A DNA stretch of 64,000 nucleotides from a virus (lineage: Duplodnaviria > Caudoviricetes), in the IMG/VR virus record IMGVR_UViG_3300034069_002177, positions 138,738 through 202,737 of that record. The stretch is one strand, 5' to 3'. The notes below the pieces were generated by a model. The model worked only from the letters and a program-made list of their open reading frames with translations, had not been told where the DNA came from and did not search any database. Of the stretch, positions 313 through 58,073 are shown piece after piece. The position numbers and the translations under genes are program-made. The number at the start of each line of letters is the position of its first letter. The stretch's first letter is position 1.

Positions 313-335
313 TGTCAGTGGGTTTGTAGTACACT
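313..335 (+). promoter_or_regulatory. Promoter; PafBC/RecA-NDp-like variant (TGTCAG-N11-TACACT)
   Basis: TGTCAG 313-318 and TACACT 330-335, a spacer one base longer than consensus. An alternative reading is TTTCCA(307-312)-17-TACACT. Confidence 0.4.
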
Positions 336-383
336 TGAATGCAGTAGGAAAGAAGCATCCTAGCGCAAATTGGAGGTGGCGAA

Positions 384-806
384 ATGGCTCAAATGAAATT
401 CGCTGTCAAGTGCCAAATGTGCAAAAACACTACTAAAGATCCTAGCGGTCTTTGCCAGCACCACCGCAATCTCAGTGGTAGCGCGGTTCGCAAGCTGACA
501 TTCGGCTCGGGTTTGACCCCCAAGCAGGAAACGCTGAAAAGTGCCGTGGTAAGTAACACCGAAGACCAGAATCTTTATCTGAGCGCAGCGAGCATCCAAA
601 ACGAGATTGTCAAGGGCATCGCTTACGAATTAGATCTCACAGACGGATACGGCGAAGAATTCGACACTCTGCAATCCGTAGAGGAAGCGGGCAAACCTAA
701 TGAAGGTCTTCTTGCATTCACAACTGTGGGCGGCGTGACAATGTACTTCTCCCCTGAGGAATTCGTAGATGTTCGTCTCGGTGATTCAGCCGTCAACGCC
801 GCTTAG
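384..806 (+). CDS. Hypothetical protein with N-terminal CCCH zinc knuckle
   Basis: GGAGG RBS at 372-376. N-terminus CQMC-x10-CQHH. Confidence 0.75.
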   Translation: MAQMKFAVKCQMCKNTTKDPSGLCQHHRNLSGSAVRKLTFGSGLTPKQETLKSAVVSNTEDQNLYLSAASIQNEIVKGIAYELDLTDGYGEEFDTLQSVEEAGKPNEGLLAFTTVGGVTMYFSPEEFVDVRLGDSAVNAA

Positions 807-1480
807 AGACCGCTAACGGCAATCGAGAAGATAGCCAATACGGGGATGATGATAAGAGCCGCGCCGAAGTACGTCATGTAGCGTCTACCAAATCGACGCG
901 GGGGCTTGCCTGCACCATTGTCAACTATCTTGACGACGCTACCGGTACGCATGAGTCGGAATTTCTCTACTTCGTTGATACCCTGTGGCTTGTATCCCAA
1001 GAGTTTGTCTGAGCGATAATCATTTTCCAAATCAAATGTGTCGATGACCGGGAATTGGTTCGGGAACCACCGGAAGAACCCTTTGACTAGCGCTACAAAA
1101 TCAGATGCAGTGTCTCGACTGTTGTCTACGAGACTCCGTACTTCGTCTTCAAACGTCTGACCATCTTCACGGGACAGAAGCATCTCCTTGACGGACTTAG
1201 GCGTCCCGTCTGGGTGAAGCGTAAGCTGTTCTTTCCACGTCCTACCCGAGACATCTTGCTTCGGTTTGCGAACGGTAGGCTCATCCCGCTGCGTTTCTAG
1301 AATAATGGAATGACCACTCCAGTGAATCTGACCTATCGTGTCGATGAAGAATGGCTGATTGGCGTAGTCGAGCTTGCCTGCCCCATTGGATGAGACAGTG
1401 ACTGTCGTGACGTTACCATCAGAGTTGTTCCTGATGGTGACTCGATCATTGGGCTGTAGTTCTGGGATGCTGAGCGGCAC
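803..1480 (-). CDS. Hypothetical protein with C-terminal membrane anchor, co-transcribed with ligA
   Basis: 225 aa, AAGGA RBS, starts 16 bp after the ligA stop. Hydrophobic C-terminus YFGAALIIIPVLAIFSIAV. Confidence 0.7.
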   Translation of the reverse strand: MPLSIPELQPNDRVTIRNNSDGNVTTVTVSSNGAGKLDYANQPFFIDTIGQIHWSGHSIILETQRDEPTVRKPKQDVSGRTWKEQLTLHPDGTPKSVKEMLLSREDGQTFEDEVRSLVDNSRDTASDFVALVKGFFRWFPNQFPVIDTFDLENDYRSDKLLGYKPQGINEVEKFRLMRTGSVVKIVDNGAGKPPRRFGRRYMTYFGAALIIIPVLAIFSIAVSGL

Positions 1481-1495
1481 TGTTCGTCCTTCGAC

Positions 1496-3469
1496 TTAAT
1501 CAAACAACGCACTGAGCGTGTTATCCGTATTGACTACACTATCATTTGTGTTCGGCTTAGACACCAACTCGCGAGCGGTTGCCTCAAAATCAGCGGCATC
1601 CATCACTTTGATGCCAAGCGATGCAGCCTTCTGCAATTTAGAACCGGCATCTTCACCAGCAACTACGAGGTCCGTGGTCTTGCTGACGCTTGACTGAACA
1701 TTGGCACCCAGTTTCTTAGCCTCGTCCGCAGCCTGCGTGCGACCGAACGTAGGAAACTTTCCCGTCATGACGAGGTTGAGTCCAATGAAAGGACTTGCGT
1801 TAGGTACCACAACACGCTCTGCTTCTACAGGCTTGTACCCGTATCGGACATACAGTTCACGCTCGGTACGCTCGATTCGCTCCTGAGCAGCAATGACACT
1901 CTTTGCCTTGGTACCCCCAAAGCGGGGAATTGCCAGAAGATCTTCTTCGCTTGCCTGAGCGATACCGCCGAGAGTGTGAAACCTTTCCGCAAGCTGGGTA
2001 GCAGTCGAAAGAGATGCGCGAGCAATTCCCAATGCAGCGAACCATTTGGCAACCGTTGCGCCCTTGATGGCATCCTGAATAGCCTTGACAGCCTTATTGG
2101 CGGAAACGGTACCCTGCCGGTCCAGTTCCGTAATCTGAGCAGGTGTGACACCAAGCATGTCCACGAGGTCTTTGACGATGCCTGCGGCAACAAGCTTACC
2201 TACGAGAACGGATGAAACTCCCAGAACCCCAAGCTGTCCAAGCCCATAGGTGATGATCGTGACAGGGTCGCAGCCACCTACAGAGCAAACAATGTCTTTG
2301 TTCTTGAAATAGATGGGCGATCCACAGGTGGGGCAGGCATCGGGAATGGCAATATCTACCGCATCGGGGGAGTGGTCGCCGTTTCGACCAATGACATAAG
2401 GAATAACTTCGTTGCTGCGCTGAACATCAATCGTGTCATTGATTTTGATATCCATTTCCTGAAGGAAAGTTGCATTGTGAAGTGTAGCGCGAGCTACATC
2501 AACGCCAAGCTTGATGGGTTCGAAAACTGCCACCGGAACGATGCGTCCAGTACGCCCAGTGCTCCACTCGACAGCGTGAAGAACAGTCTGCTTGACTTCG
2601 GACTTGAACTTGAAAGCGACAGCCCAGTTAGGAGACGTGGATGATTCACCGAGGGCATCCCTCGTGGGCTGATCTCCTACCTTAATGACTACACCATCGG
2701 AATCAAATCCAAAGTCCTTACGCTCTGTTTCAAGGCGGGTGATGAGAGCCATGATGGAAGCAGCATGGTCTTCCTTGACCGTTTCGAAGAAGTGTTCGAT
2801 AGAAGTGAGAAATCCCTCTTCTTCTAGCTGCCAAGTGGGCAGGTCGCCGCCGTAGGTTACGAAGTCAACGAACTCACCAATACCGGTAACGTTTTTGCGA
2901 CGAATGATTCCGGTGGCAGTGTTTCGCGGGTTCGAGTAGTCGCCACCCAGGGGCGAGTTGTTCAGCTTCTCAAAATTCTCATGAGTGACGATGACTTCAC
3001 CTCGAACTTCCGTCCGAACACGACCGGTGTCGATAGAGTCAGGCAGTTTTCCAGCGGAAATGAGTTCACGAATAGCGGGGGTGATGTCCTCCCCATAGAT
3101 GCCGTTCCCTCGCGTAACGGCGCGCTCGAAGTATCCATCGACACCATAGATGACCGATGCTGCGCCACCGTCGTACTTCAATTCAACGGTGTATTTACGA
3201 GCCTCAGAGTTCTTGACGAATTCCTCGATATCTTCGGCGGCAAAAACTTTACGAAGAGAGAGCATGCGCTCCTTATGGGCAATCTTGCCTTCAGGAACAT
3301 ACCCGTGACCGACGCCCGCTTCTTCCTCGTCCACGCCAAGTGAATCCAACTCAGCAACGATGAGATCGAACTCGTCATCTGAGATGACGGACTCGCCGGA
3401 GTAATAAGCCTGAGAGGCTTCATCTCGCTTGGCGCTCAGCGCGGCGATGCGTTCTTCTTTGTTAGTCAC
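1496..3469 (-). CDS. ligA: NAD-dependent DNA ligase
   Basis: Adenylation motif ELKYDG, TRGNGxxGED, NPRN, DGVVIK, AVAFKF, OB domain (GRTGRIVP), C4 zinc finger CPTC-x12-C-x4-C, HhH repeats, C-terminal BRCT (SVSKTTDLVVAGEDAGSKLQKA). Confidence 0.97.
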   Translation of the reverse strand: MTNKEERIAALSAKRDEASQAYYSGESVISDDEFDLIVAELDSLGVDEEEAGVGHGYVPEGKIAHKERMLSLRKVFAAEDIEEFVKNSEARKYTVELKYDGGAASVIYGVDGYFERAVTRGNGIYGEDITPAIRELISAGKLPDSIDTGRVRTEVRGEVIVTHENFEKLNNSPLGGDYSNPRNTATGIIRRKNVTGIGEFVDFVTYGGDLPTWQLEEEGFLTSIEHFFETVKEDHAASIMALITRLETERKDFGFDSDGVVIKVGDQPTRDALGESSTSPNWAVAFKFKSEVKQTVLHAVEWSTGRTGRIVPVAVFEPIKLGVDVARATLHNATFLQEMDIKINDTIDVQRSNEVIPYVIGRNGDHSPDAVDIAIPDACPTCGSPIYFKNKDIVCSVGGCDPVTIITYGLGQLGVLGVSSVLVGKLVAAGIVKDLVDMLGVTPAQITELDRQGTVSANKAVKAIQDAIKGATVAKWFAALGIARASLSTATQLAERFHTLGGIAQASEEDLLAIPRFGGTKAKSVIAAQERIERTERELYVRYGYKPVEAERVVVPNASPFIGLNLVMTGKFPTFGRTQAADEAKKLGANVQSSVSKTTDLVVAGEDAGSKLQKAASLGIKVMDAADFEATARELVSKPNTNDSVVNTDNTLSALFD

Positions 3470-3493
3470 GATTTCTTCTTTCTTCGATACGTC

Positions 3494-3522
3494 AATCTAC
3501 CACATTGAAAGGGATACCGCAA
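3494..3522 (-). promoter_or_regulatory. Housekeeping-sigma promoter of ligA
   Basis: On the - strand: TTGCGG-17 bp-TAGATT with extended -10 (TGG). Confidence 0.6.
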
Positions 3523-3616
3523 TGCAACTTAGGAAGGGTCCAGACGGACAAGTTTTCGTATTCGGAATGAGTATGCACGTTGTCGTATAGGATGAACCAC
3601 GAATACAGGAGCGTTC

Positions 3617-4396
3617 ATGAAAAGACTTGTCGGACTGGCAGCCATTACGGTTGCAACCGTTGCCTTGCTGACGGGTTGTACCGCCATTCAAAGCAAGCCC
3701 GAAGTCATCCACTACCCCACTTACCCAGAACAGAATGTTTCTGCTCCCAAGTATGACACAAAAGCCGGTAAGGCAACGAAGCAAATTAGCTACAACAGCG
3801 AGTCGGTGCAGACAAGCACGCTCATTCCTAATACCACCATCAGCCCAGATTCCATTCCTCAGGATTTGCAAGATTCCAAGGTATTTGATATCACCCCACC
3901 GGTAGAAAACCAACCATTTATTGTCAAGATCACTTACAGGAGCAACAAGGCTGGATACTTCACAGGGGTGTCATCAACAGGTGATTACACGGACACTATC
4001 AATTCATTCGATTCTCCTGGTACAAAATACGCCATTATTGGCGTGTACGGTAAGTCTCAGACTGAGGGCGTCAAGGTGTTCGGTGACGGGCAATGGACAT
4101 TAGACATCACCCCTATTTCACAGTTGCCTGTTTTCAATGGCAAGAAAATTAGTGGCACAGGAGCTAAGGCGTTTCTTGTCAACGGCAAAACCGTCAACGT
4201 CCTCATCGCGGACGATGGTGCCGGTTTCAATCTTTACTCTTATGGGTACCAGAACCGAGTTCTCGAAAGCAACAACAGCGGGTCGCAGAATCTCAATACG
4301 GCACTACCCGGTAACGGCACAATTGTGATAGTCGATTACGACAAGCCCTGGTCCATCACCAAAGCTAAGAAGGTCGTCAGTGAAGAAGCTAAGTAA
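3617..4396 (+). CDS. Lipoprotein (beta-rich), paralog of the next gene
   Basis: CAGGAG RBS, signal peptide with lipobox LLTGC, GDGQWTLDITP motif. Confidence 0.8.
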   Translation: MKRLVGLAAITVATVALLTGCTAIQSKPEVIHYPTYPEQNVSAPKYDTKAGKATKQISYNSESVQTSTLIPNTTISPDSIPQDLQDSKVFDITPPVENQPFIVKITYRSNKAGYFTGVSSTGDYTDTINSFDSPGTKYAIIGVYGKSQTEGVKVFGDGQWTLDITPISQLPVFNGKKISGTGAKAFLVNGKTVNVLIADDGAGFNLYSYGYQNRVLESNNSGSQNLNTALPGNGTIVIVDYDKPWSITKAKKVVSEEAK

Positions 4397-5132
4397 AGCC
4401 ATCGCGGCAATGATTGCCGTGTCATTTCTACTCACCGCCTGTTCAAGTAGCAAGCCGGAGCCAGTACCGACTGCCACCAAAACAGAGGCGGCAGTCGTGC
4501 GCCCCAATTACGACACTAGTGATAAAGCTTCGATTCCTTTCACCATCAATGGAACTGGCTCACGAGACATCAAAATCAACTTCCCTACTGGCTACAAGGA
4601 ACCGTCTCTAGTGACCCTAAGTAGTAATGGCGCTGTCGATGTAACAGAGCTAAACTATGACGGTGACAGTGTTGCGGATACCGTCAGTATTGATTCCGAC
4701 GAGGGTGGCTCCCAAACAGTCGCCAAATACCCCACAGCAGATACCCCCGCTCGAACTTCCAACTTCCACGTCGATGCCAAGGATGGAGTTGCATGGGCTA
4801 TCAGTGCGCAGTCATTGGGTTCCGTTCAGAAATTGTCCAGCCTCAGCGTTTCAGGTACCGAATCGCAAATCTTTATGCTCGATTCAAAGGCTAACGTTCT
4901 GGACTTCAAAACCATCGGTGATGGTTCGGCAACGGTCTACATCATTCCTCTTAAAGGCGATTCACCGGTATCGCTCGGTGGAGGTCAGGACACGGGCAAC
5001 TACAGAACGCCAGCCTCTTCATCTAACGCCAATCTTAAGAACTATGAAGGCTCGGTATTCGAGATTGTAGCGAACAACCCGGATACGCAGAGCTACCAAT
5101 TGATTTTCACACAGCAAAATCTTGACAACTAG
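4380..5132 (+). CDS. Lipoprotein (beta-rich), paralog of the previous gene
   Basis: Lipobox LLTAC, PNYDT versus PKYDT in the neighbour, DGVAWAISAQ, 17-bp overlap with the upstream gene. Confidence 0.8.
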   Translation: MKKLSKAIAAMIAVSFLLTACSSSKPEPVPTATKTEAAVVRPNYDTSDKASIPFTINGTGSRDIKINFPTGYKEPSLVTLSSNGAVDVTELNYDGDSVADTVSIDSDEGGSQTVAKYPTADTPARTSNFHVDAKDGVAWAISAQSLGSVQKLSSLSVSGTESQIFMLDSKANVLDFKTIGDGSATVYIIPLKGDSPVSLGGGQDTGNYRTPASSSNANLKNYEGSVFEIVANNPDTQSYQLIFTQQNLDN

Positions 5133-5159
5133 CACACAATTGAAGCGATTGCGTAAGAA

Positions 5160-5181
5160 TGTCAGAGGTGTTCGTTATTCT
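5160..5181 (+). promoter_or_regulatory. PafBC/RecA-NDp-type DNA-damage promoter motif
   Basis: TGTCAG(5160-5165)-N10-TATTCT(5176-5181), an exact match to TGTCRG-N10-TAnnnT, 28 bp before the next start. Confidence 0.6.
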
Positions 5182-5209
5182 TTAAACACGAACACAAGGA
5201 GTGACAATC

Positions 5210-6199
5210 GTGCCTAGCAACAAGATCGCTTGCCTCAACCCCGAGGCTCACCACACTCAGACTCATATCGCTGGTTCTGCCGCAGCTATTGCCTGCCAGC
5301 AGACCAACGGACGCAGTACGAAGATGGCTCACATCGTTGTCCCTCCGCGTCAAGTGCATAAGGGTAACAACATCGGAAACGTTTCCGTACTCACCAACAT
5401 CTCCGAGGAAGCCCTGGAGTTCTCTAAGGCGAATATCAAGCGCGAAACCCCTCGTAACGTCGCTTCTCTTATCGAGGTAGCATCAACAAGCTCTGCTCTT
5501 CGTGAACAGTTCAAAGATTTCACCCGTCCTTTCGTCAACTTGGTTCATGACGAAGACTATGCGGATGCTTACGGCGAGAACGCACTACTTCCCAACCCCC
5601 ACGATGTAGGTTTCACCTATACCGAGCCTAACGACCAGACTCAGAAGATCATTGACGCTCAAAAGGCACCTGGGTTCAACGGATTTGTTCAAGCGCTGGC
5701 TACGGAGATGGATACCGACTTCGACCAGGCAGCTTCCGCCTACAAGGTAATTGCCGGTTACTTGGGTGATGAAGACATCGCTAAGGTATATGCCGTTGGT
5801 TGCCTTCGTTCCGAATACCTTGACCGCAAGGACGAGGTTGCAGAGATCAATAAGGGCATCAAAGAACTTGAAGCTCTTTTCAATGAAGAGGTGGACGACG
5901 GAACTAAGGTCGGCAAGCACGGTATCGGTTTTGCTGACGGTGACGGCGTTCAGTTCACCCCTGCTCGTCAGTTCAACTACGATGACGCCGCTCCGCTTCC
6001 CTTGGATGACCTCGAAGGCGATGAGCGTGCTGAGGCTGTCGAATACAACAAGAATCGACTTTCTCAGGACGCCTATAAGAGCATCATTAAGTCTTGGGAG
6101 CCCAAGTATGAGCCCCTAGCTAAGATCGAGAAGACCCTAGAAAAAGAAGACTTTGACAAGTTCGTCACCTTTGGCTCGACCAAATTGACTGTCAAGTAA
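5210..6199 (+). CDS. Hypothetical protein with N-terminal Cys/His cluster (C-x5-HH-x3-H-x9-C)
   Basis: AAGGAG at 5196-5201 favours GTG 5210 over 5201. Long clean ORF followed by a terminator. Confidence 0.8.
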   Translation: MPSNKIACLNPEAHHTQTHIAGSAAAIACQQTNGRSTKMAHIVVPPRQVHKGNNIGNVSVLTNISEEALEFSKANIKRETPRNVASLIEVASTSSALREQFKDFTRPFVNLVHDEDYADAYGENALLPNPHDVGFTYTEPNDQTQKIIDAQKAPGFNGFVQALATEMDTDFDQAASAYKVIAGYLGDEDIAKVYAVGCLRSEYLDRKDEVAEINKGIKELEALFNEEVDDGTKVGKHGIGFADGDGVQFTPARQFNYDDAAPLPLDDLEGDERAEAVEYNKNRLSQDAYKSIIKSWEPKYEPLAKIEKTLEKEDFDKFVTFGSTKLTVK

Positions 6200-6207: not shown

Positions 6208-6250
6208 AACTAAATGGTCCCTGTAGAGATACAGGGACCATTTAGTTTTT
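6208..6250 (+). terminator. Intrinsic terminator
   Basis: Perfect 18-bp stem AACTAAATGGTCCCTGTA-GAGA-TACAGGGACCATTTAGTT followed by a T run. Confidence 0.85.
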
Positions 6251-7657: not shown

Positions 7658-10420
7658 ATGGCAAACGACGAAGAAGAAAAGAAGAAGAGCCTTGCGAGAG
7701 GCTTCATCGACTACGTAATCAAGAGCAACGAAGAATCATTAGGGCATGGTCCTTATGGTGCCGAGTCCGACAGTCACGTTGACGCGAAACCGTATGTCGA
7801 GTATTACCAGAATGGCATCTTCGAGGGCTATGACGGTTCTATCTGGAAGTATTACAAGTTCCCCGCTGACGTTCAGACGGAGTGGCTGAAGAACCCAGAG
7901 AACATCATCTACAACCAGAAGTTCTTCACTCAGGCAATCACGGAGTTCGGTACGTTCTTGAATGCTCAGTTGGAAAAGACCCGTAATGACATCCGGCGTC
8001 CCTTCCACATCCAAATCACGCAATCCGAGTCAACTGGAATTCGTATCCCCAGTGAGCAGGATGACCGTGAGGGCAAGGTAACCCAGAAGACTCGCGATTA
8101 CCTCAAGCGTATGACGGACGGATACACCCGACCAATCTGGCATCAGTACATGGGAGTTCGCCTTATCCCCGGAACCTTGTTCGGTGACGCATTCGGCATT
8201 ACCGAAAAGGTCCGTCGATACATCGAAATTATGACCAATCCAGGTGAGATCGACCTCGCTTCTATGAGCCGTGACCTTCATGATGTGGACAACATTATGT
8301 ATGGTGCTGGTTTTAGCGAACTGGACTTCATCGCAAACCCCGAAGACTTCGAGCAGCTTACCGCTTGGTATGGCGTCTCGGACTCTCAGTTCAACCTTTC
8401 TCGCTCGCTACAGACGACGCGTATGAAAGAACCTCTGTCAGGTATGTCTGTCATTACTCCCAAGTACCAAGAAATCCAGCTATTTGCGTTGAAGCCCCGC
8501 GAAGGTGTCAACTTGAAGGATCCCCTAGATCCCGATGCAGCATGGGCTAAGCCTTTATACCGACCGACTTCTGAAGTTGTCATGATCAGTATTCGCGGTC
8601 AGATTCGTGCCCCGAAGATTGCTGAGAACCTTCTTGAACTGAAAAACATTCGCAAAAATGAAGCCGGTCGTAAGCTTGGTGACACGTCACGACACGAGGT
8701 TGCAGGAATGATTTCTGACCTTGATGCCATCGAGAGGGCTCGATACGTCATCAATGAATACAAGCTTCCAATGCTCGATAACCTCGAAATTGTTATGGCT
8801 GCTAAGGTTAAGGGCGACGGCATTACGAACCAATTGTTCAATAGCCTAAAGAGCTATGACATGGAGGCTAATCTCCTCGTTGGTCGTCAGCCATTGGGTA
8901 TTATGGCGTCACTTCCGACATATCCTCGTCAGACTCTGCGTGTTCCTCGTGGCAACACTAAGCGTCCAGAACTTTCCAACGTCATGCTTCCAGGAATGCT
9001 CGCTATGAGCGGACTTTTCCGCAGCACCAAGCCTTGTGCCAACTTTGGTATTCTTGTGGGACTTGCAACTGCTGGGCACTCGTATGAGGAAATCATGACC
9101 GAGGTTGATGGCGCAGCTAAAAATAACCGCGTTCCTGGTATGCTCATCACTGGTCGTCCTGGTGCCGGTAAGACGCAGCAGCTTCTCCAAATGTCAATTC
9201 AAATTGCCAACATGGGTCTCCCTGTTGCCTTCTTCAACCCGAAGAAGGAGAGTACGTTGAAGCCGACATTTGATCACATTCACGGAATCACGATTTCGAT
9301 GGAAACCGCTTATCTTGACCAGAACCCCGGTCTTCTTGACCCGGTATTCTTCCTTAAGAACCGTGGTGACGTTGCTGACCTCGTTTCCGATGCCATTCTT
9401 ACGGCTAACCGCATGTATGAAGACCGTGGAGCTTCCGCTTCTCAGCGTCGTACCAAGGTTTCATCTGAAATTCGTGACCGTGCTCTCGACAAGAGAAACA
9501 GAACAACTTTCGACATTTTGTTCGGAAATAAGGCTGTAGGAACCACGGCGATTACTGACACTGACATTCTCGACTTCGTTCGCAGCAAGATCAGCATTAG
9601 TGCGTTCTGGAAGGCATTCATTGCTCCTACCGCAACAAGCTCGGAATTGCAAAAGCAGATTACCAGTGGTCGCTCATTCCTTATGGAATGGGGTAGCTCA
9701 ATGAAGCTTCCTGACGCGTCCAAGGTTCCCAACGACTACACAGACCCCGAGATTGACACCGTTCTTTCTATCAACGTTACATTCAAGTACGCCGCCGAGG
9801 TTGTTGGAGGCGGTCAGGGTGGCGCGATTGTGGTTGACGAGTCGTGGGTATTGAAGCAGTCTCGTGAAGCTATGGCTATCCTCACCAAGGGTGGTCGTGA
9901 ATGGCGTCAGGCTAACATCATGCTTATTATGGGTACACAGCGAATCATTGACTGGATCGATGCTCGGTCTGAGAAATCAAGCGGCAGTGGTGGAGGCGCA
10001 AGCAACATGTCTTCATATTTCGACCGTTACCTCTTCATGGCTATCAACGAAGCTGACGAGAACGAATTGTCGGCGTACTTCGAGTTGACGGGTCTTCCCG
10101 ACACCGATGCGAACCGACGCTGGATTATCGAAGCTGGTCCTCGTAAGGATGGAAAACTTCCTAACGGTTACTACATCGACAACATTTACAACTGGGCTGG
10201 CGGACTCGTTTGTGGACCCTGGCCGCAATATGAACTCGACTTGGGTCGTACTGACAAGGAGGGTCTTGCCATGAAACAAAGAGGCGCGGCTACAAAGGCT
10301 CAACAGTCTTTCGCCAAGGCAGCGTCTTCGGGCGGTTATGGCGGCGCTTTACTTGATGTTATGAGCAATGACAACGATTTGGTTTCTGAGTTCGAAGAAA
10401 AAGAAGACGTAAACGCGTGA
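7658..10420 (+). CDS. VirB4/TcpF-like conjugation ATPase
   Basis: Walker A GRPGAGKT, Walker B IVVDESW, then GGREWRQANIMLIMGTQ. 920 aa, in transfer-gene context. Confidence 0.8.
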   Translation: MANDEEEKKKSLARGFIDYVIKSNEESLGHGPYGAESDSHVDAKPYVEYYQNGIFEGYDGSIWKYYKFPADVQTEWLKNPENIIYNQKFFTQAITEFGTFLNAQLEKTRNDIRRPFHIQITQSESTGIRIPSEQDDREGKVTQKTRDYLKRMTDGYTRPIWHQYMGVRLIPGTLFGDAFGITEKVRRYIEIMTNPGEIDLASMSRDLHDVDNIMYGAGFSELDFIANPEDFEQLTAWYGVSDSQFNLSRSLQTTRMKEPLSGMSVITPKYQEIQLFALKPREGVNLKDPLDPDAAWAKPLYRPTSEVVMISIRGQIRAPKIAENLLELKNIRKNEAGRKLGDTSRHEVAGMISDLDAIERARYVINEYKLPMLDNLEIVMAAKVKGDGITNQLFNSLKSYDMEANLLVGRQPLGIMASLPTYPRQTLRVPRGNTKRPELSNVMLPGMLAMSGLFRSTKPCANFGILVGLATAGHSYEEIMTEVDGAAKNNRVPGMLITGRPGAGKTQQLLQMSIQIANMGLPVAFFNPKKESTLKPTFDHIHGITISMETAYLDQNPGLLDPVFFLKNRGDVADLVSDAILTANRMYEDRGASASQRRTKVSSEIRDRALDKRNRTTFDILFGNKAVGTTAITDTDILDFVRSKISISAFWKAFIAPTATSSELQKQITSGRSFLMEWGSSMKLPDASKVPNDYTDPEIDTVLSINVTFKYAAEVVGGGQGGAIVVDESWVLKQSREAMAILTKGGREWRQANIMLIMGTQRIIDWIDARSEKSSGSGGGASNMSSYFDRYLFMAINEADENELSAYFELTGLPDTDANRRWIIEAGPRKDGKLPNGYYIDNIYNWAGGLVCGPWPQYELDLGRTDKEGLAMKQRGAATKAQQSFAKAASSGGYGGALLDVMSNDNDLVSEFEEKEDVNA

Positions 10421-10506
10421 TAGGTTTACGCCCAAAATGTCTTAGAGGGGTCAAGCGTTTGCTAAGCTTCCGAAAGATGAACGAGAGAATTGGCTAGGTA
10501 AGGGTA

Positions 10507-13210: not shown

Positions 13211-13243
13211 GCCCTACCCAATTCGCCAATAGTAGAACGAACG

Positions 13244-49055: not shown

Positions 49056-49077
49056 TGTCGGTTCGTACTGATATGAT
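49056..49077 (+). promoter_or_regulatory. PafBC/RecA-NDp-type DNA-damage promoter motif
   Basis: TGTCGG(49056-49061)-N10-TATGAT(49072-49077), an exact consensus match, 32 bp before the next start. Confidence 0.65.
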
Positions 49078-49109: not shown

Positions 49110-50243
49110 GTGGGAGTAGGTTCCGCCAAGTGCAAAAAAGATTCGTGTGCTCGTAGCACAACGGGTCTCTATTGCTGGCAGCACTGGTACCTCAATTACG
49201 CAGATACGGAAGAAAGTGCCCGTTCTGGTCGCCTCGAACGTCTCGCTCAGCAGCGGCATGACAAGGGTTCGCAATCTGATTCAACCGAATTCAAAGAGAC
49301 TCCTTTTTCTGGTGACACCACTCCAACTCAGATTTGGTCAGACACCAAAAAGGTGTTCATGGACATCCAAGATCAAATTGAACCGGAAGGTATCCGCAAC
49401 CAAGTCAGATCGTACGCCGAGGGTATCGCCACTACGGCTTCGCTTCGTTTTGCAAAGGATGAAAGACTCGAAGTAGACACTGATTTGCGAGACCGTCACA
49501 TCGAAGGATTCACTTCTGAAATTGTTGAAGGTCTTGTTCCTACCGGCGAGCTTGTAGCTCAGGAAGACGCTGAGTTCATTAGCGGCTCGGTTCCGGCTGA
49601 CGGGCTAGGTGGTTTTGCCGACTACGACGACGCTCGCGCGATCATTTCCTACGGTATTCGTAAAGAGTGGGAACTAGCTAATGCAGAACGCATCAAAGAA
49701 TCTGCTGATGAAATTCCCTATGACATTCCTTACGACAAGTTTCTTTCTGTCGTCTACAACAACGACATTGCGCCCCACCTCGTCGTAGCGACTCGTCGAG
49801 AAGCGAGCGACTTCCATAACAACGTCGTCATCGCTACAGGCAGCAAGGCGGCTAACCCAGCAGGAGTAAATCCCGTGGGTGCATTGCCGTCCCGTGCTGA
49901 GTCTGAACCGCTACACTCAGCCTACTTCGATGAAGCACGTGAATGGGTTGCTCAGAATCAAGCTGACCGCGATGCGCAAGCCAAGGCGCAAGCGGAAGCA
50001 GAAGCTATTGAAGCGGAACGCATCCAAGCACGCCAGGATGCCGTTGCCGGGGTACTCAATGGTGCGACTAACACAGTCAAGGGCGCGGTCAATCTCATTG
50101 GTACCACCACTGATGTCATGAACAAACTTTTCAAGACTCGACCCGAAGACACTCAAGCTCTTATCGAACGCAGAAACAAGCAAAATAGAGACATCTTCTT
50201 TGATATGGCTACCCGCCGATACCGCGACCGCAGAGGTCTTTGA
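49110..50243 (+). CDS. Hypothetical protein with N-terminal CCCH zinc knuckle
   Basis: GGAGG at 49100-49104 favours GTG 49110. C-x4-C-x8-C-x2-H (CKKDSCARSTTGLYCWQH). Confidence 0.8.
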   Translation: MGVGSAKCKKDSCARSTTGLYCWQHWYLNYADTEESARSGRLERLAQQRHDKGSQSDSTEFKETPFSGDTTPTQIWSDTKKVFMDIQDQIEPEGIRNQVRSYAEGIATTASLRFAKDERLEVDTDLRDRHIEGFTSEIVEGLVPTGELVAQEDAEFISGSVPADGLGGFADYDDARAIISYGIRKEWELANAERIKESADEIPYDIPYDKFLSVVYNNDIAPHLVVATRREASDFHNNVVIATGSKAANPAGVNPVGALPSRAESEPLHSAYFDEAREWVAQNQADRDAQAKAQAEAEAIEAERIQARQDAVAGVLNGATNTVKGAVNLIGTTTDVMNKLFKTRPEDTQALIERRNKQNRDIFFDMATRRYRDRRGL

Positions 50244-50385: not shown

Positions 50386-51027
50386 ATGTCACAGGCAGCA
50401 TTCCCAGCAGGAACCATCATCGCAGAGGGTACGCTCTACGCAGACCCCAAGAAGATCAACCGCGACGGCAAGAACGCCACCGTCTCACTGAAGACGAAGC
50501 TGAACTACCGTGAGCAGGAAGGCGACGAACTCGACGCCTTCTTCATCGACATTATCGTGACTGGCAGCACCGCTGAGAACATCTTGGAGTCAGGCTGGAA
50601 GAAGTATGACCGTATTTCCTTCGTTGGCGACTTCAAGGGTCACCGTTGGGAGCGTAAGCTCGATGATGGTATCAATGAAGAGCAGACCATCACGGTCTTC
50701 GCTCGCCAGATCGGTGCATCACCTCGCTTCACCGGAGTTTCGGTAGAGGCTCAGGAGTACAACGGTAATGGCGGCGGCGATGACGACTCGCGTTCTAGCG
50801 GTGGCAGCAGTAGCAGCCGTCGTTCTACTCGCGGTGGCGATGACGAAGAGGCACCTCGTTCCTCGCGTCGTTCGTCTCGCGGAGGCGATGACGATGCACC
50901 CGCAGAAGAGTCGCGTTCTTCGCGTCGCTCATCTCGCGGTAACAGCGATGACACGGCTGATGAGCAGCCTAGCGCTCGTCGTTCCTCGCGTCGTGCTCGT
51001 GACACCACCTATGGTGATGACGACTAA
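50386..51027 (+). CDS. ssb: Single-stranded DNA-binding protein with an atypical repetitive tail
   Basis: OB-fold pattern (IAEGTLYADP..FFIDIIV..AENI..KYDRISFVGDF..IGASPRF) with a disordered C-tail. Confidence 0.85.
   Translation: MSQAAFPAGTIIAEGTLYADPKKINRDGKNATVSLKTKLNYREQEGDELDAFFIDIIVTGSTAENILESGWKKYDRISFVGDFKGHRWERKLDDGINEEQTITVFARQIGASPRFTGVSVEAQEYNGNGGGDDDSRSSGGSSSSRRSTRGGDDEEAPRSSRRSSRGGDDDAPAEESRSSRRSSRGNSDDTADEQPSARRSSRRARDTTYGDDD
50812..51003 (+). repeat. Four imperfect tandem repeats coding alternating RSSRRSSRG and acidic blocks in SSB
   Basis: SSRRSTRGGDDEEAP / RSSRRSSRGGDDDAPAEES / RSSRRSSRGNSDDTADEQP / SARRSSRRARD; DNA unit about CGTTCCTCGCGTCGTTCGTCTCGCGG. Confidence 0.85.
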
Positions 51028-51128: not shown

Positions 51129-53408
51129 ATGACGAAATTCCTAACGCTAAAGCTAACCAACTTCCTTAGCTACAAAACCCTCGATATCAACCTCGACGAC
51201 ATCGCATATGCTTCCGTCGTGGGTGAAAACGGTTCGGGTAAATCCACTATTCCTCAGGGAATCGCATGGCTTCTCTACGGTGCTAGTAGATTCGGCAACA
51301 ACAAAGATTCCGTTGTGAACGATTCTGCGAAGACCGCGTCGGGCATTCTTACGCTTCTGGACAAGGATGGTCAGAAGTGGAAAATCGAACGTAGCTGGAC
51401 GACCGGAAAAGGCGGCGGTGGCGGACTTGCGTTATTCTACGAGGACACGACAGAAGATGACCCGTGGCAGCAGTTCGGCGGTAAGCTGAAGGAAAGTGCT
51501 CAGACACAAATAAACCTCATTATTGGTCTGACACGCGATGCGTTTTACTCGCTTGTCATCATGGATCAAAGCAAATATCCCGGTGGCACCGCATTCACCG
51601 CGAGTGAGTCCAACAAGCGACGAGAAATTCTCACTGGTCTTGTTCCCGAATTAGCAATTTGGAAAGACCTCGAAATGGCTACTCGGGCGAATCTACGCGA
51701 GGCGAACAAAGACTACGATGCTGATCAAGCGAAAATCGATCAGAACATCGAGCAGGTTAGAAAGTCACAAGAACGCGAAAGCTCAATCAAAATCATCCTT
51801 GAAGAGCTTGACGCTGACTCAATTACCGCCGAGCAAAAAGCGGCTGAGAAGAAAGTCTCAGAACTGAATCGGGCTATCGGTGCTGCAAGTGCTGGCGAGG
51901 TGGGCGCTATCCAGTCAAAGATTGATTCGGCAGAAGCTCAGCACCGCCTCGCTCTTAATGAGTTGAACTCCAAGGCTGACAAAATCGATAACCAGCTTGC
52001 CGATAGCTCAGACTTCAGCAAGAGAATCAGTGCGCTCAAATCTAAGAAGTCGGCATTCGAGGAAACTATCGCGGATATCATCGCGGGTGAAGACGACCTC
52101 GTATCTTCAATTAACGAGACCAAGAGCATCATCTCTGAAGAGATCGAAGTAGTGGACCGCATTGCACCTAAAATCGAGTCGGTCAACCGGAGAATCACCG
52201 AAGCGCGTAGTAAAAAGCGTGATATTGACGAACAGCTTGATGCGCTCGGTGACGCTCATGGGGATGGTGTTTGCTGGGTTTGTGGTACGGAACTTTCGGA
52301 AGAGAAGCACGCCAACATCGTTACCAAAGCTGTAAAAGAAAGAGACGAAGCGAACGAAACCATTGAAGAACTTTCCGAAGAACTAGATATTCTCAAGCGG
52401 AAGCTTAGCGACGCCAACAAGGAAATCCAGTCACAAAACGCGGCGCTCGTCAGGCAGAATAATGAGGCGGCGCAGAACGAAAGAGACAAGAAAAACGCGG
52501 CTGTTGATATCGAATCAACCGAAGATGAAATCGATGAGCTAACCGCGAAGATCCTATCCGAAGCGGAAGAAAAGAAGCTTGATGCTGAACTCAAAGCAAT
52601 CGATAAGGACATCGCCAAGCGTGAAAATGAGTTCGAGAAAGTCACCCTCAAGGTTCTTCGTGAGCAGTTGAATTCTGTCAAAAACGACAACAACACCGAT
52701 GAATTGCGCCGTCAACTTGACGCGGTAGAAGATGTCTTGGAAGAGATTCGTTTTCGCAAAACTAAGCTAGAGCGCAACCTTTCTTCGCTGGAAGAGGCAG
52801 AGCGGAACACTGCTGAACTCAACAAGCAGAACAAGCGAATGAACCGCGAAGCGTTAGAGAAAAAGCAGCATATCGACCGTCTCTCCAAGCTTGTACATGC
52901 CACAAGCCCGAAGGGCATTCCGTCGATTCTTCTCGATTCAATTCTGGCTGCAATCGAAGATGAGCAGAACAGAATTCTTTCGTCGCTTTCTGGAAGCAAT
53001 CAGATGACTGTCGAGTTCACACAAGAACGTGAAAATAAGGGCGAAGGTAGCAAGGAAGTTCTCGACATCATTGTTCACACGTCGGACGGAACAAGCAGGC
53101 TATACGAATCTTTCTCGTTCGGTGAGAGGGTGCGTCTTTCTATCAGTAACCTGTTCGCCATGATCAAGGTTTTCAATGAGCGCAGTGGTGGAGTGGTCAG
53201 CACATTGTTCCTTGATGAGCCACTTGGACCGTTGGACAAGAACAAGATTCCTGCGTTCATCGACATTCTTCGGGTTGCTATGAACGAGGGACTTGTTGAT
53301 TCCATTTTCGTCATCACTCACGACGACCGAGTGATCGAAGCGCTCCCTCAGCAAGTCCTAGTGACTATCGACCCTGAAACAAAGACATCTAGCTTGGAGG
53401 TAAGCTAA
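51129..53408 (+). CDS. sbcC: SbcC/Rad50-family SMC ATPase
   Basis: Walker A GENGSGKS, Q-loop IMDQ, coiled coils with zinc hook CWVC, signature FSFGE, Walker B LFLDEPLGPLD, H-loop VITH. Confidence 0.9.
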   Translation: MTKFLTLKLTNFLSYKTLDINLDDIAYASVVGENGSGKSTIPQGIAWLLYGASRFGNNKDSVVNDSAKTASGILTLLDKDGQKWKIERSWTTGKGGGGGLALFYEDTTEDDPWQQFGGKLKESAQTQINLIIGLTRDAFYSLVIMDQSKYPGGTAFTASESNKRREILTGLVPELAIWKDLEMATRANLREANKDYDADQAKIDQNIEQVRKSQERESSIKIILEELDADSITAEQKAAEKKVSELNRAIGAASAGEVGAIQSKIDSAEAQHRLALNELNSKADKIDNQLADSSDFSKRISALKSKKSAFEETIADIIAGEDDLVSSINETKSIISEEIEVVDRIAPKIESVNRRITEARSKKRDIDEQLDALGDAHGDGVCWVCGTELSEEKHANIVTKAVKERDEANETIEELSEELDILKRKLSDANKEIQSQNAALVRQNNEAAQNERDKKNAAVDIESTEDEIDELTAKILSEAEEKKLDAELKAIDKDIAKRENEFEKVTLKVLREQLNSVKNDNNTDELRRQLDAVEDVLEEIRFRKTKLERNLSSLEEAERNTAELNKQNKRMNREALEKKQHIDRLSKLVHATSPKGIPSILLDSILAAIEDEQNRILSSLSGSNQMTVEFTQERENKGEGSKEVLDIIVHTSDGTSRLYESFSFGERVRLSISNLFAMIKVFNERSGGVVSTLFLDEPLGPLDKNKIPAFIDILRVAMNEGLVDSIFVITHDDRVIEALPQQVLVTIDPETKTSSLEVS

Positions 53409-54078: not shown

Positions 54079-54107
54079 TTGCGGCAACCAAAATCGTTTG
54101 CTACAGT
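54079..54107 (+). promoter_or_regulatory. dnaN promoter
   Basis: TTGCGG-17 bp-TACAGT with extended -10 (TGC); same -35 as ligA. Confidence 0.6.
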
Positions 54108-54139
54108 ACCTACACCTAAGAAGGATAAAGAGAACAAGA

Positions 54140-55351
54140 ATGAAGATTACAGCAGATCAGCAGGTCATCGATAAGAGCATCAAGGTAGTTGAAACCTATG
54201 CCGCCAAGGAAGGTTCGGGTGGTAGCATCAACAACCTTTCGTCCATCCTCATTAATGCGGATAAGGACACGAACACCGTCACGCTTACCGCCGAGAATGA
54301 ACTCTCTGCAACCCAGTATGTGATTTCCAGTGATGTCACCGTCGAAGAATCTGGTACCATCCTGGTGCCTGCCGCTCGACTAAAGATTGCTGTTTCGAAC
54401 GTAGCCGCAGGTGAAGAGGTCGAGTTGGAGGCAGATAACCTCAACCTCACCATTTCGTCAGGTCAGCGTAAACTTTCGCTTGGTCTTCTTGATGTGCATT
54501 CGACCCTTCTCCCTCGTATTGGTGAGACCGGTGATGCTTCTGCTGTATTCCAGTCTAGCGAGTTCGTCGCAGGCTTCAAGGGTGGTGCTTCGATTGCTGA
54601 TAACGGCAGTTCCAGCGTTTCCAGCAACGTGTACCTCGGTTTCGAGGGTAAGCGAGCACTTTTTGCCACCCGTATCGGTGCTGCTGTCAACCTCAAGTAC
54701 GTGGGCATTGAGAAGCTTGATGGCAGCATCGAGACTCTTGTCAACCGAAGCGCGCTCAACAACGCCATCGAGCAGATTGCTCAAGGGGATACCGTCGAGG
54801 TATCGCTAGCTGAGAACAAGAGTGACGTACATCTCGTTATCAAGGGCGAAGGCATCAATCGCCACATCCGTCTCGCCACTTCGGCGCACGATGTCAAGGC
54901 GTTCCAGGTTGACCTCATCAAGAACAACACCCTTTCCAGCGTCACTAAGTCGGTAGGCATCGTCACCGTCAACAAGCGTGACCTTATCGCCACCTTGCGG
55001 GCTGCTGACGCCATCGCCGCCCTCAACGGCAAGACGGAGGTTCGTGACATCAAGATTGCAGTAGCTAAGGGTGGTATCACCATCAGCGTCAAGGATCGCG
55101 CCGGGTTCGAGGATGTCGTTGATATCAAGAGCCTTGTGGGAGAGCCTGCATCGCTTCTGTTCCGCTGGAATCAGTTCACCAACCTGTTCGAGTCATACCC
55201 CGCAGACCGCGACGAACTCATCATCGCCTTCATCCCGCGTGAGGGTAACATCATCCGTTCTATCGCTCTAATCGATGATGAGAACTTCGCTCCCGGCGAT
55301 GACGCATCTAACCTGACTTATGTTGCTATGGCAGCCGCAAGTCAGCCGTAA
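54140..55351 (+). CDS. dnaN: DNA polymerase III beta sliding clamp (divergent)
   Basis: MKITAD..LSSILINA..VTLTAENEL..VEESGTILVPA; three-domain periodicity; about 400 aa. Confidence 0.85.
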   Translation: MKITADQQVIDKSIKVVETYAAKEGSGGSINNLSSILINADKDTNTVTLTAENELSATQYVISSDVTVEESGTILVPAARLKIAVSNVAAGEEVELEADNLNLTISSGQRKLSLGLLDVHSTLLPRIGETGDASAVFQSSEFVAGFKGGASIADNGSSSVSSNVYLGFEGKRALFATRIGAAVNLKYVGIEKLDGSIETLVNRSALNNAIEQIAQGDTVEVSLAENKSDVHLVIKGEGINRHIRLATSAHDVKAFQVDLIKNNTLSSVTKSVGIVTVNKRDLIATLRAADAIAALNGKTEVRDIKIAVAKGGITISVKDRAGFEDVVDIKSLVGEPASLLFRWNQFTNLFESYPADRDELIIAFIPREGNIIRSIALIDDENFAPGDDASNLTYVAMAAASQP

Positions 55352-55405: not shown

Positions 55406-56299
55406 ATGAGTATTCTAAACAACGTTCCTGCTGCCTTCCGTGGACCTATCATGGGCAACGCAGACGCCATCATCAGCGCAGTAGTTCCTCAGTATGCAGA
55501 CGGCGCATCTGTTGATGATGTTGTCCACTTTATCAGTGGTGCAATTCGTCACCAGGCTCGTATTGCTATCAACAAGGATGGTCAGCCCCTTGGCGAGGGA
55601 AAGAGCAACACATTCAAGGCTGTCATCGACCGCGTAGAGATTTTCGAACGTCGGGGAGACCAGAACTTCCTCGTGGGCAAGAAGGCAAAGATTCACCTGA
55701 AGGCGAAGAATGCTGGTGGTGACACCGAGGACCAGAGCATCGACACTGAGTGGATTGAATACCACGCCGGTCGCCGCGAAGATGAGGTTTTCGGTATTGC
55801 GCTCGCAAACACAATCGTCAAGGTAGCAGAAGCCAATAAGGGCAAGGAAGTCTTTGTTAGCAAGGGATTCATTACCGGTGTAACCACCTCTAAGGGCGGA
55901 AGCTCGGTTCGTTTCTGTGCAAACATCGTTCCTGCTAACGGAGCTACGGGTGGCGGTGAAGATGCTGGTTCTCGCTCTAACTCTTCTTCTGGTTCCAGTT
56001 CATCTTCTTCCAACAGCAAGCCTCTCGCATCCAAGGATGAAATCGCTGATTTCATTGAAGACATCAAGGATGACCGTGATGCCAATAAGCTCTTTGGAAA
56101 GCTCGATGACAAGCAGCAGCGTGAGATTCCCCGCGTTGTTCTTAGTGGACTAGCCGCTGGTAACCCCGTCGCGTACATCAGCAAGGCGTTGGAGACTTTG
56201 GAAATTGAAATTTCTCGCGATGAGATTGCGGACATTATCGACGGCAAAAGCAAGGAAAAGGACTTCGACTTGTTCTTCCTCATCAGTGAGGCTGTCTAA
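55406..56299 (+). CDS. Hypothetical protein, possible OB-fold, co-transcribed with the nuclease
   Basis: TATAAT at 55368-55373. A beta-beta-beta-alpha-beta-beta pattern in the N-half, a Ser/Gly linker and a helical acidic C-domain. Confidence 0.7.
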   Translation: MSILNNVPAAFRGPIMGNADAIISAVVPQYADGASVDDVVHFISGAIRHQARIAINKDGQPLGEGKSNTFKAVIDRVEIFERRGDQNFLVGKKAKIHLKAKNAGGDTEDQSIDTEWIEYHAGRREDEVFGIALANTIVKVAEANKGKEVFVSKGFITGVTTSKGGSSVRFCANIVPANGATGGGEDAGSRSNSSSGSSSSSSNSKPLASKDEIADFIEDIKDDRDANKLFGKLDDKQQREIPRVVLSGLAAGNPVAYISKALETLEIEISRDEIADIIDGKSKEKDFDLFFLISEAV

Positions 56300-56301
56300 T
56301 A

Positions 56302-57354
56302 ATGACCGTTACAATCTCTCGCGAGCAAATCGAAGCAGAGGTTGACAAGGTACTTCCTTCCGAAAGTGCTGGTGTTGTAGTCGAACTTCCCGAAGAGTGG
56401 GTAAAGAGCTTCAACGCCAAATCTCGAAGCGAGAGCCCTTCGTCAATTGTTTCCTACCTACAGTGCCCTTTGCGCTGGTTCGTGGACCGTCACGCGCCGT
56501 TCGAGCGCATCAAGTCTCCTACTCGTTGGACGGTGCTTGGAACGTTCGTGCACCGTGTTCTGGAAGTTTTCTACTCCGAGCCTGCACATCTTCGTAGTCA
56601 GAAATTGCTCATGGAAACTTATGAGTATGCCTATGAACTTCTGGAAAAGAACGACACCGAAGATGGACTCATTGACAAGTCTTTGGCTGAGGACTACCAG
56701 ATTACTTTAGAGAGCGACAAGTATGGACGTGCCAGCGTTCAGAAGTACATGCGTACTCGCTCACGCGAAATTGTAGAGGGGTACCTAGATAACTTCGAGC
56801 CCGACCCCGAAGAAGTCGAAGTCATTTCAAATGAAACATGGGTTCGTGGAGAAATCAACGGCGTCAAGATTCAGGGTAAGATCGACCGCGTTATCCCTGA
56901 TGATGAAGATGGCGAAATCATTGAGGACTACAAGACAGGAAAGACTGTCGGAATCACCTCTGACTTCAAAGGTCCGCGAGTATTCGAAAAGACACTCATC
57001 CCGGCTGGTATCTATGCCTGGCTGCGCATGGAGATGACTCGTAAGGAGCTTCTACCTTCTAAGGTGACTTCCGTACGTTTGCTCTACATCGGCGCGTCTC
57101 CTGAGCCTGAGAGCGTTTCCATCAACGTCAACGACAACACCGTCGAGCGTATCCGTAGCCTTATCAGCGCAATTACGCTGGATATGGATGCTATGGTGAA
57201 CAAGGACAAGGAAATTCTTGCAATCGCGGCTCCCAAGAATGGTGACCGGCGTGGATACTGCGAGTATTGCCCTATCCTCAAGGATTGTCCGGCATGGACA
57301 AACAGTGATTCACTTGATGACATTGTAGCCAACTATACTGTTCTCAAGCGATAA
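56302..57354 (+). CDS. PD-(D/E)XK nuclease of the RecB/AddB/Cas4-like type with an Fe-S staple
   Basis: SPSSI..YLQCP, GTFVHRVLE, GKIDRV..IEDYKTG, C-terminal CEYCPILKDC. Confidence 0.88.
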   Translation: MTVTISREQIEAEVDKVLPSESAGVVVELPEEWVKSFNAKSRSESPSSIVSYLQCPLRWFVDRHAPFERIKSPTRWTVLGTFVHRVLEVFYSEPAHLRSQKLLMETYEYAYELLEKNDTEDGLIDKSLAEDYQITLESDKYGRASVQKYMRTRSREIVEGYLDNFEPDPEEVEVISNETWVRGEINGVKIQGKIDRVIPDDEDGEIIEDYKTGKTVGITSDFKGPRVFEKTLIPAGIYAWLRMEMTRKELLPSKVTSVRLLYIGASPEPESVSINVNDNTVERIRSLISAITLDMDAMVNKDKEILAIAAPKNGDRRGYCEYCPILKDCPAWTNSDSLDDIVANYTVLKR

Positions 57355-57365
57355 GGAGTTTCGGA

Positions 57366-58073
57366 GTGGTTGCAGTACGCACATGTGGTTACAACGGTTG
57401 TGGTAACCCGGTAAGAGAGGGCGAACTACGTTGCTATCGGCACAAGGATGTCGAGGCTCACGCTAGTAACCCTTTGAAGTCTGCAAGCGCTTCTGATTCT
57501 ACTTTCATTCGTGAGCAGTGGCATTCGCTCAAAGAACTTTCCTTCCTCGTGAACCGCAAGGCTCCGGGAGCTATGACGATGAATGAGCGCCAGGCTGAGT
57601 TTCTCGCTGTTGCTTCGAAGATGGATCTAAAAACGGCTGGTCGTGTTGCCGATGCTAGCGAAATCATCAATCAAAGACGCCCGGAACTGAATACTCCCGC
57701 GTTTGTGGCTCAGAATCTGATGGGTCTTATTGGTGAGTTCACCAACGATTTGGAAGAGTCTGGTATCGACCCGAAACGCATCAGTCGGTTGCAGATGTGG
57801 AATGCTACTCGACGTATTGGCAACGGAAGACTTGACAACTCGGCTGATGTAGGGCATGTTGTTCTCGTAATGGACCGGGGCGAACCAAGAGAGTCCACGA
57901 TGGACGTAGGAATTTCGATGTTTGCGCCGGTAGCCGATCCGAATAGACCAGTTGCCGATCAGTACGATACCAAGTATTCCCCGTTTGGTTACGCTCCGCT
58001 GATTAGCACGGTTGATACTTACAAGCAAGAACGGTATCTATGGTTCCAGCACTTCCGGTATTTGGATTCCTAA
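57366..58073 (+). CDS. Hypothetical protein with N-terminal CCCH zinc knuckle
   Basis: AAGGAG RBS; C-x4-C-x10-C-x2-H (CGYNGCGNPVREGELRCYRH). Confidence 0.75.
   Translation: MVAVRTCGYNGCGNPVREGELRCYRHKDVEAHASNPLKSASASDSTFIREQWHSLKELSFLVNRKAPGAMTMNERQAEFLAVASKMDLKTAGRVADASEIINQRRPELNTPAFVAQNLMGLIGEFTNDLEESGIDPKRISRLQMWNATRRIGNGRLDNSADVGHVVLVMDRGEPRESTMDVGISMFAPVADPNRPVADQYDTKYSPFGYAPLISTVDTYKQERYLWFQHFRYLDS

Follow-up and report, generated by a model that had tools for sequence, protein, structure and literature searches.

PafBC-type promoters and an N-terminal peptide tag mark accessory genes of a probable giant conjugative-type element

In Actinobacteria, PafBC is known as the chief activator of the DNA-repair genes on the chromosome. 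The promoters that depend on it (also called RecA-NDp promoters) follow the consensus tGTCgg(N10)tA(N3)T, in which the box occupies positions -28 to -23 and there is no -35 element, and the GTC triplet within the box is subject to base-specific read-out by PafB (PMC8635444). PafBC is switched on when single-stranded DNA (ssDNA) binds to its WYL domains (PMC11804915). Here we describe promoters of this type in a 64,000-nucleotide stretch of viral-database DNA (the window), which is the last 64 kb (positions 138,738 to 202,737) of the 202,737 bp IMG/VR record IMGVR_UViG_3300034069_002177 and has a G+C content of about 51%. The record is labeled "provirus" and represents 203 kb of a 654 kb contig, the contig being given by the cluster records for the protein encoded from window position 384. 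A preliminary description of the window had proposed that four otherwise unrelated hypothetical proteins with N-terminal Cys/His zinc knuckles, encoded from positions 384, 5210, 49110, and 57366, constitute a family of knuckle-tagged effectors, three of them preceded by a PafBC-type motif, that the element connects to the DNA damage response of the host.

Mobile elements are known to control their early genes through ssDNA by a different route. ArdA and ArdC, which act in the recipient cell, are well-known examples of the proteins by which conjugative plasmids become established (PMC7213743, PMC11541004), and enterobacterial plasmids fire such genes on entry from promoters that form in ssDNA (PMC9849209). 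In our literature search we found no paper on a mobile element that carries a whole regulon of PafBC-type promoters.

Conserved promoters with a PafBC-type box

The window contains three candidate promoters of this type, all on the + strand. Two match the motif TGTCRG-N10-TAnnnT exactly: TGTCAG-N10-TATTCT at 5160–5181, and TGTCGG-N10-TATGAT at 49056–49077, where a TGA provides an extended -10 element. The third, TGTCAG-N11-TACACT at 313–335, is a variant with an N11 spacer that lies 48 nt 5′ of the start of the 384 gene. When we reread the sequence, the coordinates, motif patterns, and Cys/His spacings that had been reported for these loci all proved to be correct, as did the assigned starts of the 5210 and 49110 genes, upstream of which the GTG and TTG codons overlap the Shine-Dalgarno sequences. 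A scan for sigma-70 promoters detected no -35/-10 pair at any of the three sites. It had also been noted that other promoters in the window carry ordinary -35 boxes, and this was borne out: five intergenic regions of the window contain TTGnnn-N16–18-TAnnnT, and the GTC box is found at the three sites only.

In related elements, all three sites are the sole conserved islands within the orthologous intergenic DNA. An alignment of seven intergenic regions orthologous to that of the 49056 site (the adjacent proteins being 53–100% identical) left TGTC and TGATAnGnT as the only invariant columns. At the 5160 site, TGTCAGAGG and TATyCT are kept in two relatives in which the upstream DNA is scrambled. 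The orthologue of the 313 site on an 805 kb metagenome contig (L027) reads TGTCAG-N10-TACAAT. As this orthologue has the canonical spacing, the N11 copy in the window is a canonical site with a spacer longer by one base. A separate block, TGATAGGGTnTGGCAAAT, lies just 5′ of the 313 box at 291–308; 17 of its 18 positions are kept in the L027 orthologue, where the flanks differ, which makes the block a possible operator or additional regulatory site.

The presence of two exact matches in the window had been judged unlikely to arise by chance. At the level of the window this did not hold, because 2 matches were observed against 0.61 expected and 12 of 100 shuffled sequences reached 2, which is not significant and is what one might see if the matches were fortuitous, or if they were ordinary housekeeping promoters. 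Over the whole record, however, the same judgment stood. The motif occurs eight times on the + strand and never on the - strand (the reversed control gave 2 and 0), and it does so only at the N10 spacing: all other spacings from N7 to N14 gave 0–3 matches per strand. If one mismatch is allowed, there are 32 sites on the + strand and 13 on the - strand, and most of the + strand sites fall within the intergenic 7.5% of the record. An unbiased core, GTC-N12-TAnnnT (equivalent to the N10 spacing of the full box), lies in the 120 nt that precede 19 of the 229 genes, compared with 3–5 genes for each of the other spacings from N8 to N16. The strand preference is repeated on independent contigs: in 93 kb of syntenic relatives the counts of TGTC-N12-TAnnnT on the + and - strands are 7 and 0, and in three further metagenome contigs they are 11 and 1. 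The box promoters are, moreover, confined to accessory cassettes, whereas the operons for replication and transfer have -35 boxes of the form TTGnnn. Given this specificity of strand, spacing, and position, together with the footprints at the window sites, we regard an origin by chance or from housekeeping promoters as very improbable.

A logo built from 19 sites reads TGTCG-N11-TAnnAT, with GTC invariant in 19/19. The 20 positions preceding the box have no information content (i.e., there is no -35 element), a G is found two bases before the -10 hexamer in 14 of the sites, and an A is found 7 nt after it, about where transcription would be expected to start, in 13. The logo and its geometry are identical to the published PafBC consensus, in which GTC is the read-out triplet (PMC8635444), and the earlier assignment of the motif to the PafBC/RecA-NDp type is thus upheld by its sequence, its invariant GTC, its N10 spacing, and the absence of a -35 element. 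Judged by sequence and conservation, the three sites in the window represent genuine promoters that are conserved and lack a -35 element, and that belong to the class acting by "sigma adaptation." They would function through a TGTCG box at about -26 and a GnTAnnAT -10 element, and they would belong to a regulon of at least 19 promoters that extends across the element. The chromosomal PafBC promoters of Mycobacterium and other Actinobacteria (PMC8635444, PMC11804915, PMC5656591), which share the consensus, the invariant GTC, the sigma-A -10 element, and the lack of a -35 element, likewise form one regulon from many dispersed promoters. They differ in driving repair genes of the chromosome, whereas the promoters described here are on a mobile element and mostly drive proteins that carry an N-terminal tag.

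The promoter is coupled to an N-terminal DKNG tag

Most of the genes that lie behind the other sites encode the peptide x-P-x-I-V-D-K-N-G-K-x-T-T-V-H-K at about residues 6–20. This tag (IVDKNGKxTTVHK, hereafter DKNG) precedes a linker and an R..AP patch, and it is joined to bodies that are unrelated to each other. A profile hidden Markov model (HMM) of the tag retrieved 19 proteins from the record, with E values from 4e-19 to 2.5e-6, and nothing else. Their genes all lie outside the window, at L009:2364–3665, 4909–5409, 8389–10065, 10078–10995, 16600–17295 (-), and 17767–18357; L011:10648–11301 (-); L012:935–1750, 1750–2364, and 3270–4289; L013:5593–6201, 13095–13568, 14166–15251, and 17583–19103 (-); L014:6035–6493 and 11664–12578; and L015:3005–3430, 3480–4523, and 12826–13899. 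The strict promoter precedes 13 of these 19 genes (Fisher p = 1.2e-12). Among the remainder, one gene has a variant -10 element and another directly abuts the tagged gene upstream of it. The association is also found on three other metagenome contigs, on which the box is present at 11 of 15 DKNG genes, either 6 nt (leaderless) or 21–24 nt from the start codon. The real partner of the promoter is thus the DKNG tag. The preliminary description was right in supposing that N-terminally tagged proteins share one type of promoter, but the tag in question is DKNG and not the zinc knuckle, and we consider its interpretation as a whole to be partly supported.

The distance between promoter and start codon varies among the tagged genes. 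In many of them (L028–L030; genome positions 8361 and 63242) the ATG lies exactly 6 nt after the -10 hexamer, an arrangement that predicts leaderless mRNAs, and others have a leader of 19–35 nt with a Shine-Dalgarno sequence.

The tag is widespread in metagenomic proteins. A profile search found it in 720 representative protein clusters, and among the best 150 of these it is almost always located within residues 1–45; the proteins are 52–439 aa long, apart from two longer repeat proteins. The ten best clusters that we examined consist of metagenomic proteins without names, except for one unrelated repeat protein, and comparison of the tag with Pfam gave no family match. Synonymous sites within the motif vary freely, so that selection acts on the DKNG peptide; this also rules out conservation at the level of RNA, which we had considered. 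The tagged proteins are divided by charge, the N-terminal 45 aa having an isoelectric point (pI) of 9.4–11.5 and the remainder a pI of 4.1–6.1. Each promoter would mostly drive one gene for a short basic N-terminal module joined to a different and usually acidic body. Across the element, the module would mostly be the DKNG sequence, which we picture as a hairpin; in the window, it would be the Cys/His knuckle.

The HrpL "hrp-box" regulon controls the type III effectors of Pseudomonas syringae. It resembles the present set in that unrelated proteins can be recognized by a dedicated type of promoter together with a common N-terminal signal. The two differ in sigma factor, motif, secretion system, and organisms, and export of the DKNG proteins is not implied.

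Zinc-knuckle proteins as a side branch of the promoter set

The four knuckle proteins of the window, all encoded on the + strand, do not carry the DKNG tag, as the HMM matched none of them. The first (384–806) is a 140 aa protein with a basic N-terminal CCCH knuckle (C10-x2-C13-x10-C24-x2-H27) and a very acidic remainder of pI 4.05. The CCCH ligands are kept in its family, including an orthologue (P0011) that is 60% identical. The same knuckle recurs on an otherwise unrelated protein of 187 aa that is encoded just upstream of the window (genome 137792–138355, L015:17792–18355), with 54% identity over 28 aa (E = 1e-8), and it follows that at least this knuckle is a modular N-terminal unit. A word-index search with the 40 aa knuckle region of the 384 protein returned only the protein itself. 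Both the 384 protein and this paralogue have the charge split that is characteristic of the DKNG proteins, with pI values of 10 and about 4 for the two parts.

The second protein (5210–6199; 329 aa) is encoded just upstream of a VirB4-like transfer cluster and starts with C-x5-HH-x3-H-x9-C. Its residues C8, H14, H19, and C29 are invariant in three orthologues, in which the whole of the first 65 aa is also conserved. The third (49110–50243; 377 aa) is encoded between the gene for a DinG-like helicase and ssb, and in it a CCCH knuckle (C-x4-C-x8-C-x2-H) is joined through a variable linker to a helical body that is conserved; C8, C13, C22, and H25 are invariant in eight sequences, and the homologues are all metagenomic. 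For the 49110 family, AlphaFold2 gave a model of too low quality to be used in a structure search (mean predicted local distance difference test score, pLDDT, 42.8). The fourth (57366–58073; 235 aa) has a CCCH knuckle (C-x4-C-x10-C-x2-H) in which C12, C23, and H26 are invariant and the first of the spacings changes from x4 to x2.

Because its gene starts only 11 nt after that of a PD-(D/E)XK nuclease (3–10 nt in relatives), the 57366 protein is encoded within an operon and lacks a separate promoter. The genes that do have a box promoter are, by contrast, single-gene cassettes: the 384 gene is monocistronic because the next gene is convergent with it, and the 5210 cassette is closed on the + strand by an intrinsic terminator with an 18 bp stem and a T run (6208–6247).

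Orthologues of all four proteins retain the Cys/His ligands, and the neighboring residues vary in the 384, 49110, and 57366 families but not in the 5210 family. On this pattern of conservation, the knuckles are predicted to be real small metal-binding N termini. None of the four proteins matched a curated zinc-finger family or any other Pfam or PHROG family, the sole Pfam entry returned being zf-C2H2 at E = 0.39 for the 384 protein. All-against-all BLASTP gave E values above 0.5 for every pair except the 384 protein and its paralogue outside the window, and the notion of a family of four is therefore not sustained.

If a single effector family were defined by the knuckle as its shared tag, and if promoters of the PafBC type were specific to knuckle genes and placed them within the DNA damage response, the promoter should be enriched upstream of Cys/His N termini. 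With the strict motif, 1 of 5 CCCH-type N termini carries the promoter (Fisher p = 0.35); with a looser Cys/His rule, and with the N11 site counted, 3 of 11 do (p = 0.09). It is true that all three GTC-box promoters of the window precede proteins with conserved N-terminal Cys/His ligands, that the 384 knuckle is modular and is found on a second body, and that the knuckle proteins share the pattern of a basic N terminus and an acidic body with the DKNG proteins. At least 13 promoters, however, serve DKNG genes that have no Cys/His module, the 57366 gene has no promoter, the proteins show no similarity beyond the 384 pair and have no curated zinc-finger match, and a candidate promoter before the paralogue (TGTCGG-N10-CATCAT) was rejected, as it is not conserved in L027. 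We consider this view of the knuckle improbable. The knuckle proteins are a small side branch of the promoter set and not its organizing principle.

Two intermediate possibilities were also discarded. The N terminus of the 5210 protein (RVPCLNTEAH...) could be seen as a degenerate DKNG hairpin, and the knuckle could be seen as a replacement for the hairpin within a common bipartite tag. Neither was supported by the HMM or by hhalign, which gave a probability of 0.1 for the DKNG tag against the 49110 N terminus; the charge pattern alone is shared. Further zinc-type proteins are encoded elsewhere in the record, at L013:13565–14098 (-) and L010:16984–18216 (-); one of them starts with CxxC...CxxxC, and a protein of 410 aa has four DUF4379 treble-clef repeats. 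A 633 aa DUF4379 protein is inserted beside the 57366 orthologue in L019.

The element, its cargo, and the reader of the box

Despite the "provirus" label, we set aside a phage identity for the element, as the record has no match to the HK97 capsid or TerL families. The element carries transfer-type genes, namely a VirB4-like AAA_10 ATPase, a weak match to Replic_Relax, and an FtsK/SpoIIIE protein, and further upstream in the record there are two T2SSE ATPases and one T2SSF protein. A query with the VirB4-like protein gave no phage matches; the only matches were to Curtobacterium plasmids, at 22% identity, and a search for closely similar DNA among plasmids returned nothing. The element also has its own DNA-handling set, the window coding for a near-complete replisome: a clamp loader (17910–19643), DnaE (30296–34225), DnaB (34304–35941, -), SSB (50386–51027), and a sliding-clamp-like protein (54098–55351), together with SbcC/Mre11-like proteins (including one that is SbcC/Rad50-like, 51129–53408), GyrB (58137–60260), LigA (1496–3469, -), the DinG-like helicase, and the PD-(D/E)XK nuclease. 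GyrA was assigned by synteny only. An Rfam scan of the window gave no match; elsewhere in the record, 64 tRNA genes and a transfer-messenger RNA (tmRNA) gene (tag ANASRNDFALAA) lie within about 17 kb (L012:4899 to L013:1841; genome ~64.9–81.8 kb).

Relatives of the element are located on metagenome contigs of 495 kb and 805 kb, and the sequence is present in metagenome runs from plants, leaf litter, and food. The window encodes a WhiB-domain protein (45522–46205, +; Pfam Whib, E = 2e-5, 25.5 bits against a cut-off of 23.6), and the relatives encode DUF732, DUF3039, and DUF6458 proteins. From these families the setting is probably actinobacterial, and the element is probably a giant conjugative-type element of an actinobacterial host.

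Some of the proteins encoded behind the box promoters have recognizable domains. An ArdC-like tagged protein, in which ArdcN (E = 2.6e-10) is combined with a zincin peptidase domain, is encoded at L015:3480–4523 (genome 123480–124523, +) behind TGTCGT-N10-TAAGAT, and an ArdA-like tagged protein of a relative (P0019; L031:10001–10693) is encoded behind TGTCAC-N10-TACCAT. Both of these anti-restriction genes lie outside the window. Other cargo includes a CCA-adding/poly(A) polymerase head with an HD domain, a GmrSD_N domain, and, below the cut-off, a papain-like fold. The ArdC-like, ArdA-like, CCA-adding/HD, and GmrSD-type proteins suggest that the job of the regulon is establishment and counter-defense.

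We narrowly favor the reading that the promoters make up an establishment regulon that is triggered by ssDNA or DNA damage and is read by the ssDNA-activated PafBC of the host. Most likely, a host PafB-PafC heterodimer activated by ssDNA would bridge the box to sigma-A, and the cassettes would fire whenever ssDNA appears, be it during conjugative entry, replication of the element, or DNA damage. The three cassettes of the window would then be further members of the establishment set. The likeness of this scheme to the Frpo leading-region genes (ardA, psiB, and ssb of F and ColIb; PMC11541004, PMC9849209) and to ArdC (PMC7213743) lies in the anti-restriction cargo under proposed ssDNA-responsive control and in the proposed purpose of early counter-defense and establishment. 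The means would differ, because here a host activator that senses ssDNA would act on duplex promoters, whereas there a hairpin promoter forms in the transferred strand. The sites described here do not have the Frpo layout: they are ordinary duplex -10 promoters with an upstream box, and the cassettes are dispersed across a span exceeding 200 kb, whereas the Frpo-controlled genes are clustered behind oriT.

Matches to WYL, HTH_PafC, or sigma-70 region 2 are absent from the 203 kb record, in which no PafB or PafC gene was found, and the reader of the box is therefore not obviously encoded by the element. The principal alternative is nevertheless that an element-encoded factor, either the WhiB-domain protein or an unrecognized helix-turn-helix (HTH) protein elsewhere on the 654 kb contig, reads the TGTCG box, in which case the promoters would form a timed "middle" class with no link to ssDNA or damage. 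The WhiB family binds sigma-A region 4, and giant elements that have their own replisome, gyrase, tRNAs, and tmRNA often bring their own control of transcription. The WhiB-domain protein of the window has an N-terminal extension of 134 aa, is conserved and syntenic in relatives, and has an ordinary sigma-70-type promoter of its own (TTGTGC-N17-TAGATT). Furthermore, the record that was searched is one third of the source contig. We know of no WhiB-type protein that reads a -26 box, however, and the exact agreement of the box, the spacing, and the invariant GTC with the PafBC motif would have to be a coincidence. There is a precedent for such a factor in phage T4, in which a box at about -30 replaces the -35 element and an adaptor bridges to sigma region 4 (MotA/AsiA, mentioned in PMC8635444); that factor is encoded by the invading element, and none of the kind was found in the 203 kb searched. 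On balance, we think it rather unlikely, though far from negligible, that an element-encoded factor is the reader.

Several points weigh against assigning the regulon to the host's PafBC and to ssDNA. The sixth base of the box varies here among G, C, and T, in contrast to the GG that is favored in mycobacteria, and the promoter class is assigned from sequence. The search for a regulator covered 203 kb of the 654 kb contig. Two scans of 185,579 species genomes revealed no relative. Transfer as ssDNA is predicted from the VirB4-like AAA_10, FtsK-like, and weak Replic_Relax matches. The promoter sites range in position between 2 kb and 188 kb along the record and are not gathered in a single leading region, the match of the ArdA-like protein is just below the Pfam cut-off (26.1 against 27 bits), and the three cassette proteins of the window (384, 5210, and 49110) have no function assigned by Pfam or PHROG.

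With these points in mind, a broader version of the PafBC reading can be put forward tentatively, as a proposal that we think has the odds against it. Giant elements found only in metagenomes, on contigs of 0.5–0.8 Mb, may use the PafBC of their hosts as an "arrival alarm," with about 20 duplex box promoters firing establishment and counter-defense proteins on which the basic DKNG or knuckle module would be a common address. The address could serve for loading onto the incoming DNA, for cotransfer, or for timed removal by the Pup-proteasome system, which is genetically linked to pafBC. In this form the regulon would be a functional analogue of the ssDNA leading-region promoters, combined with a code of promoter plus signal in the style of secreted effectors.

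If the host's PafBC does read these sites, the element would time the expression of its establishment and anti-restriction genes by the cell's own ssDNA alarm, which would be an alternative solution to the problem that enterobacterial plasmids solve with ssDNA hairpin promoters. The coupling of promoter and tag provides a two-mark rule by which the effector repertoire of such elements can be listed, and it makes the function of the tag directly testable.

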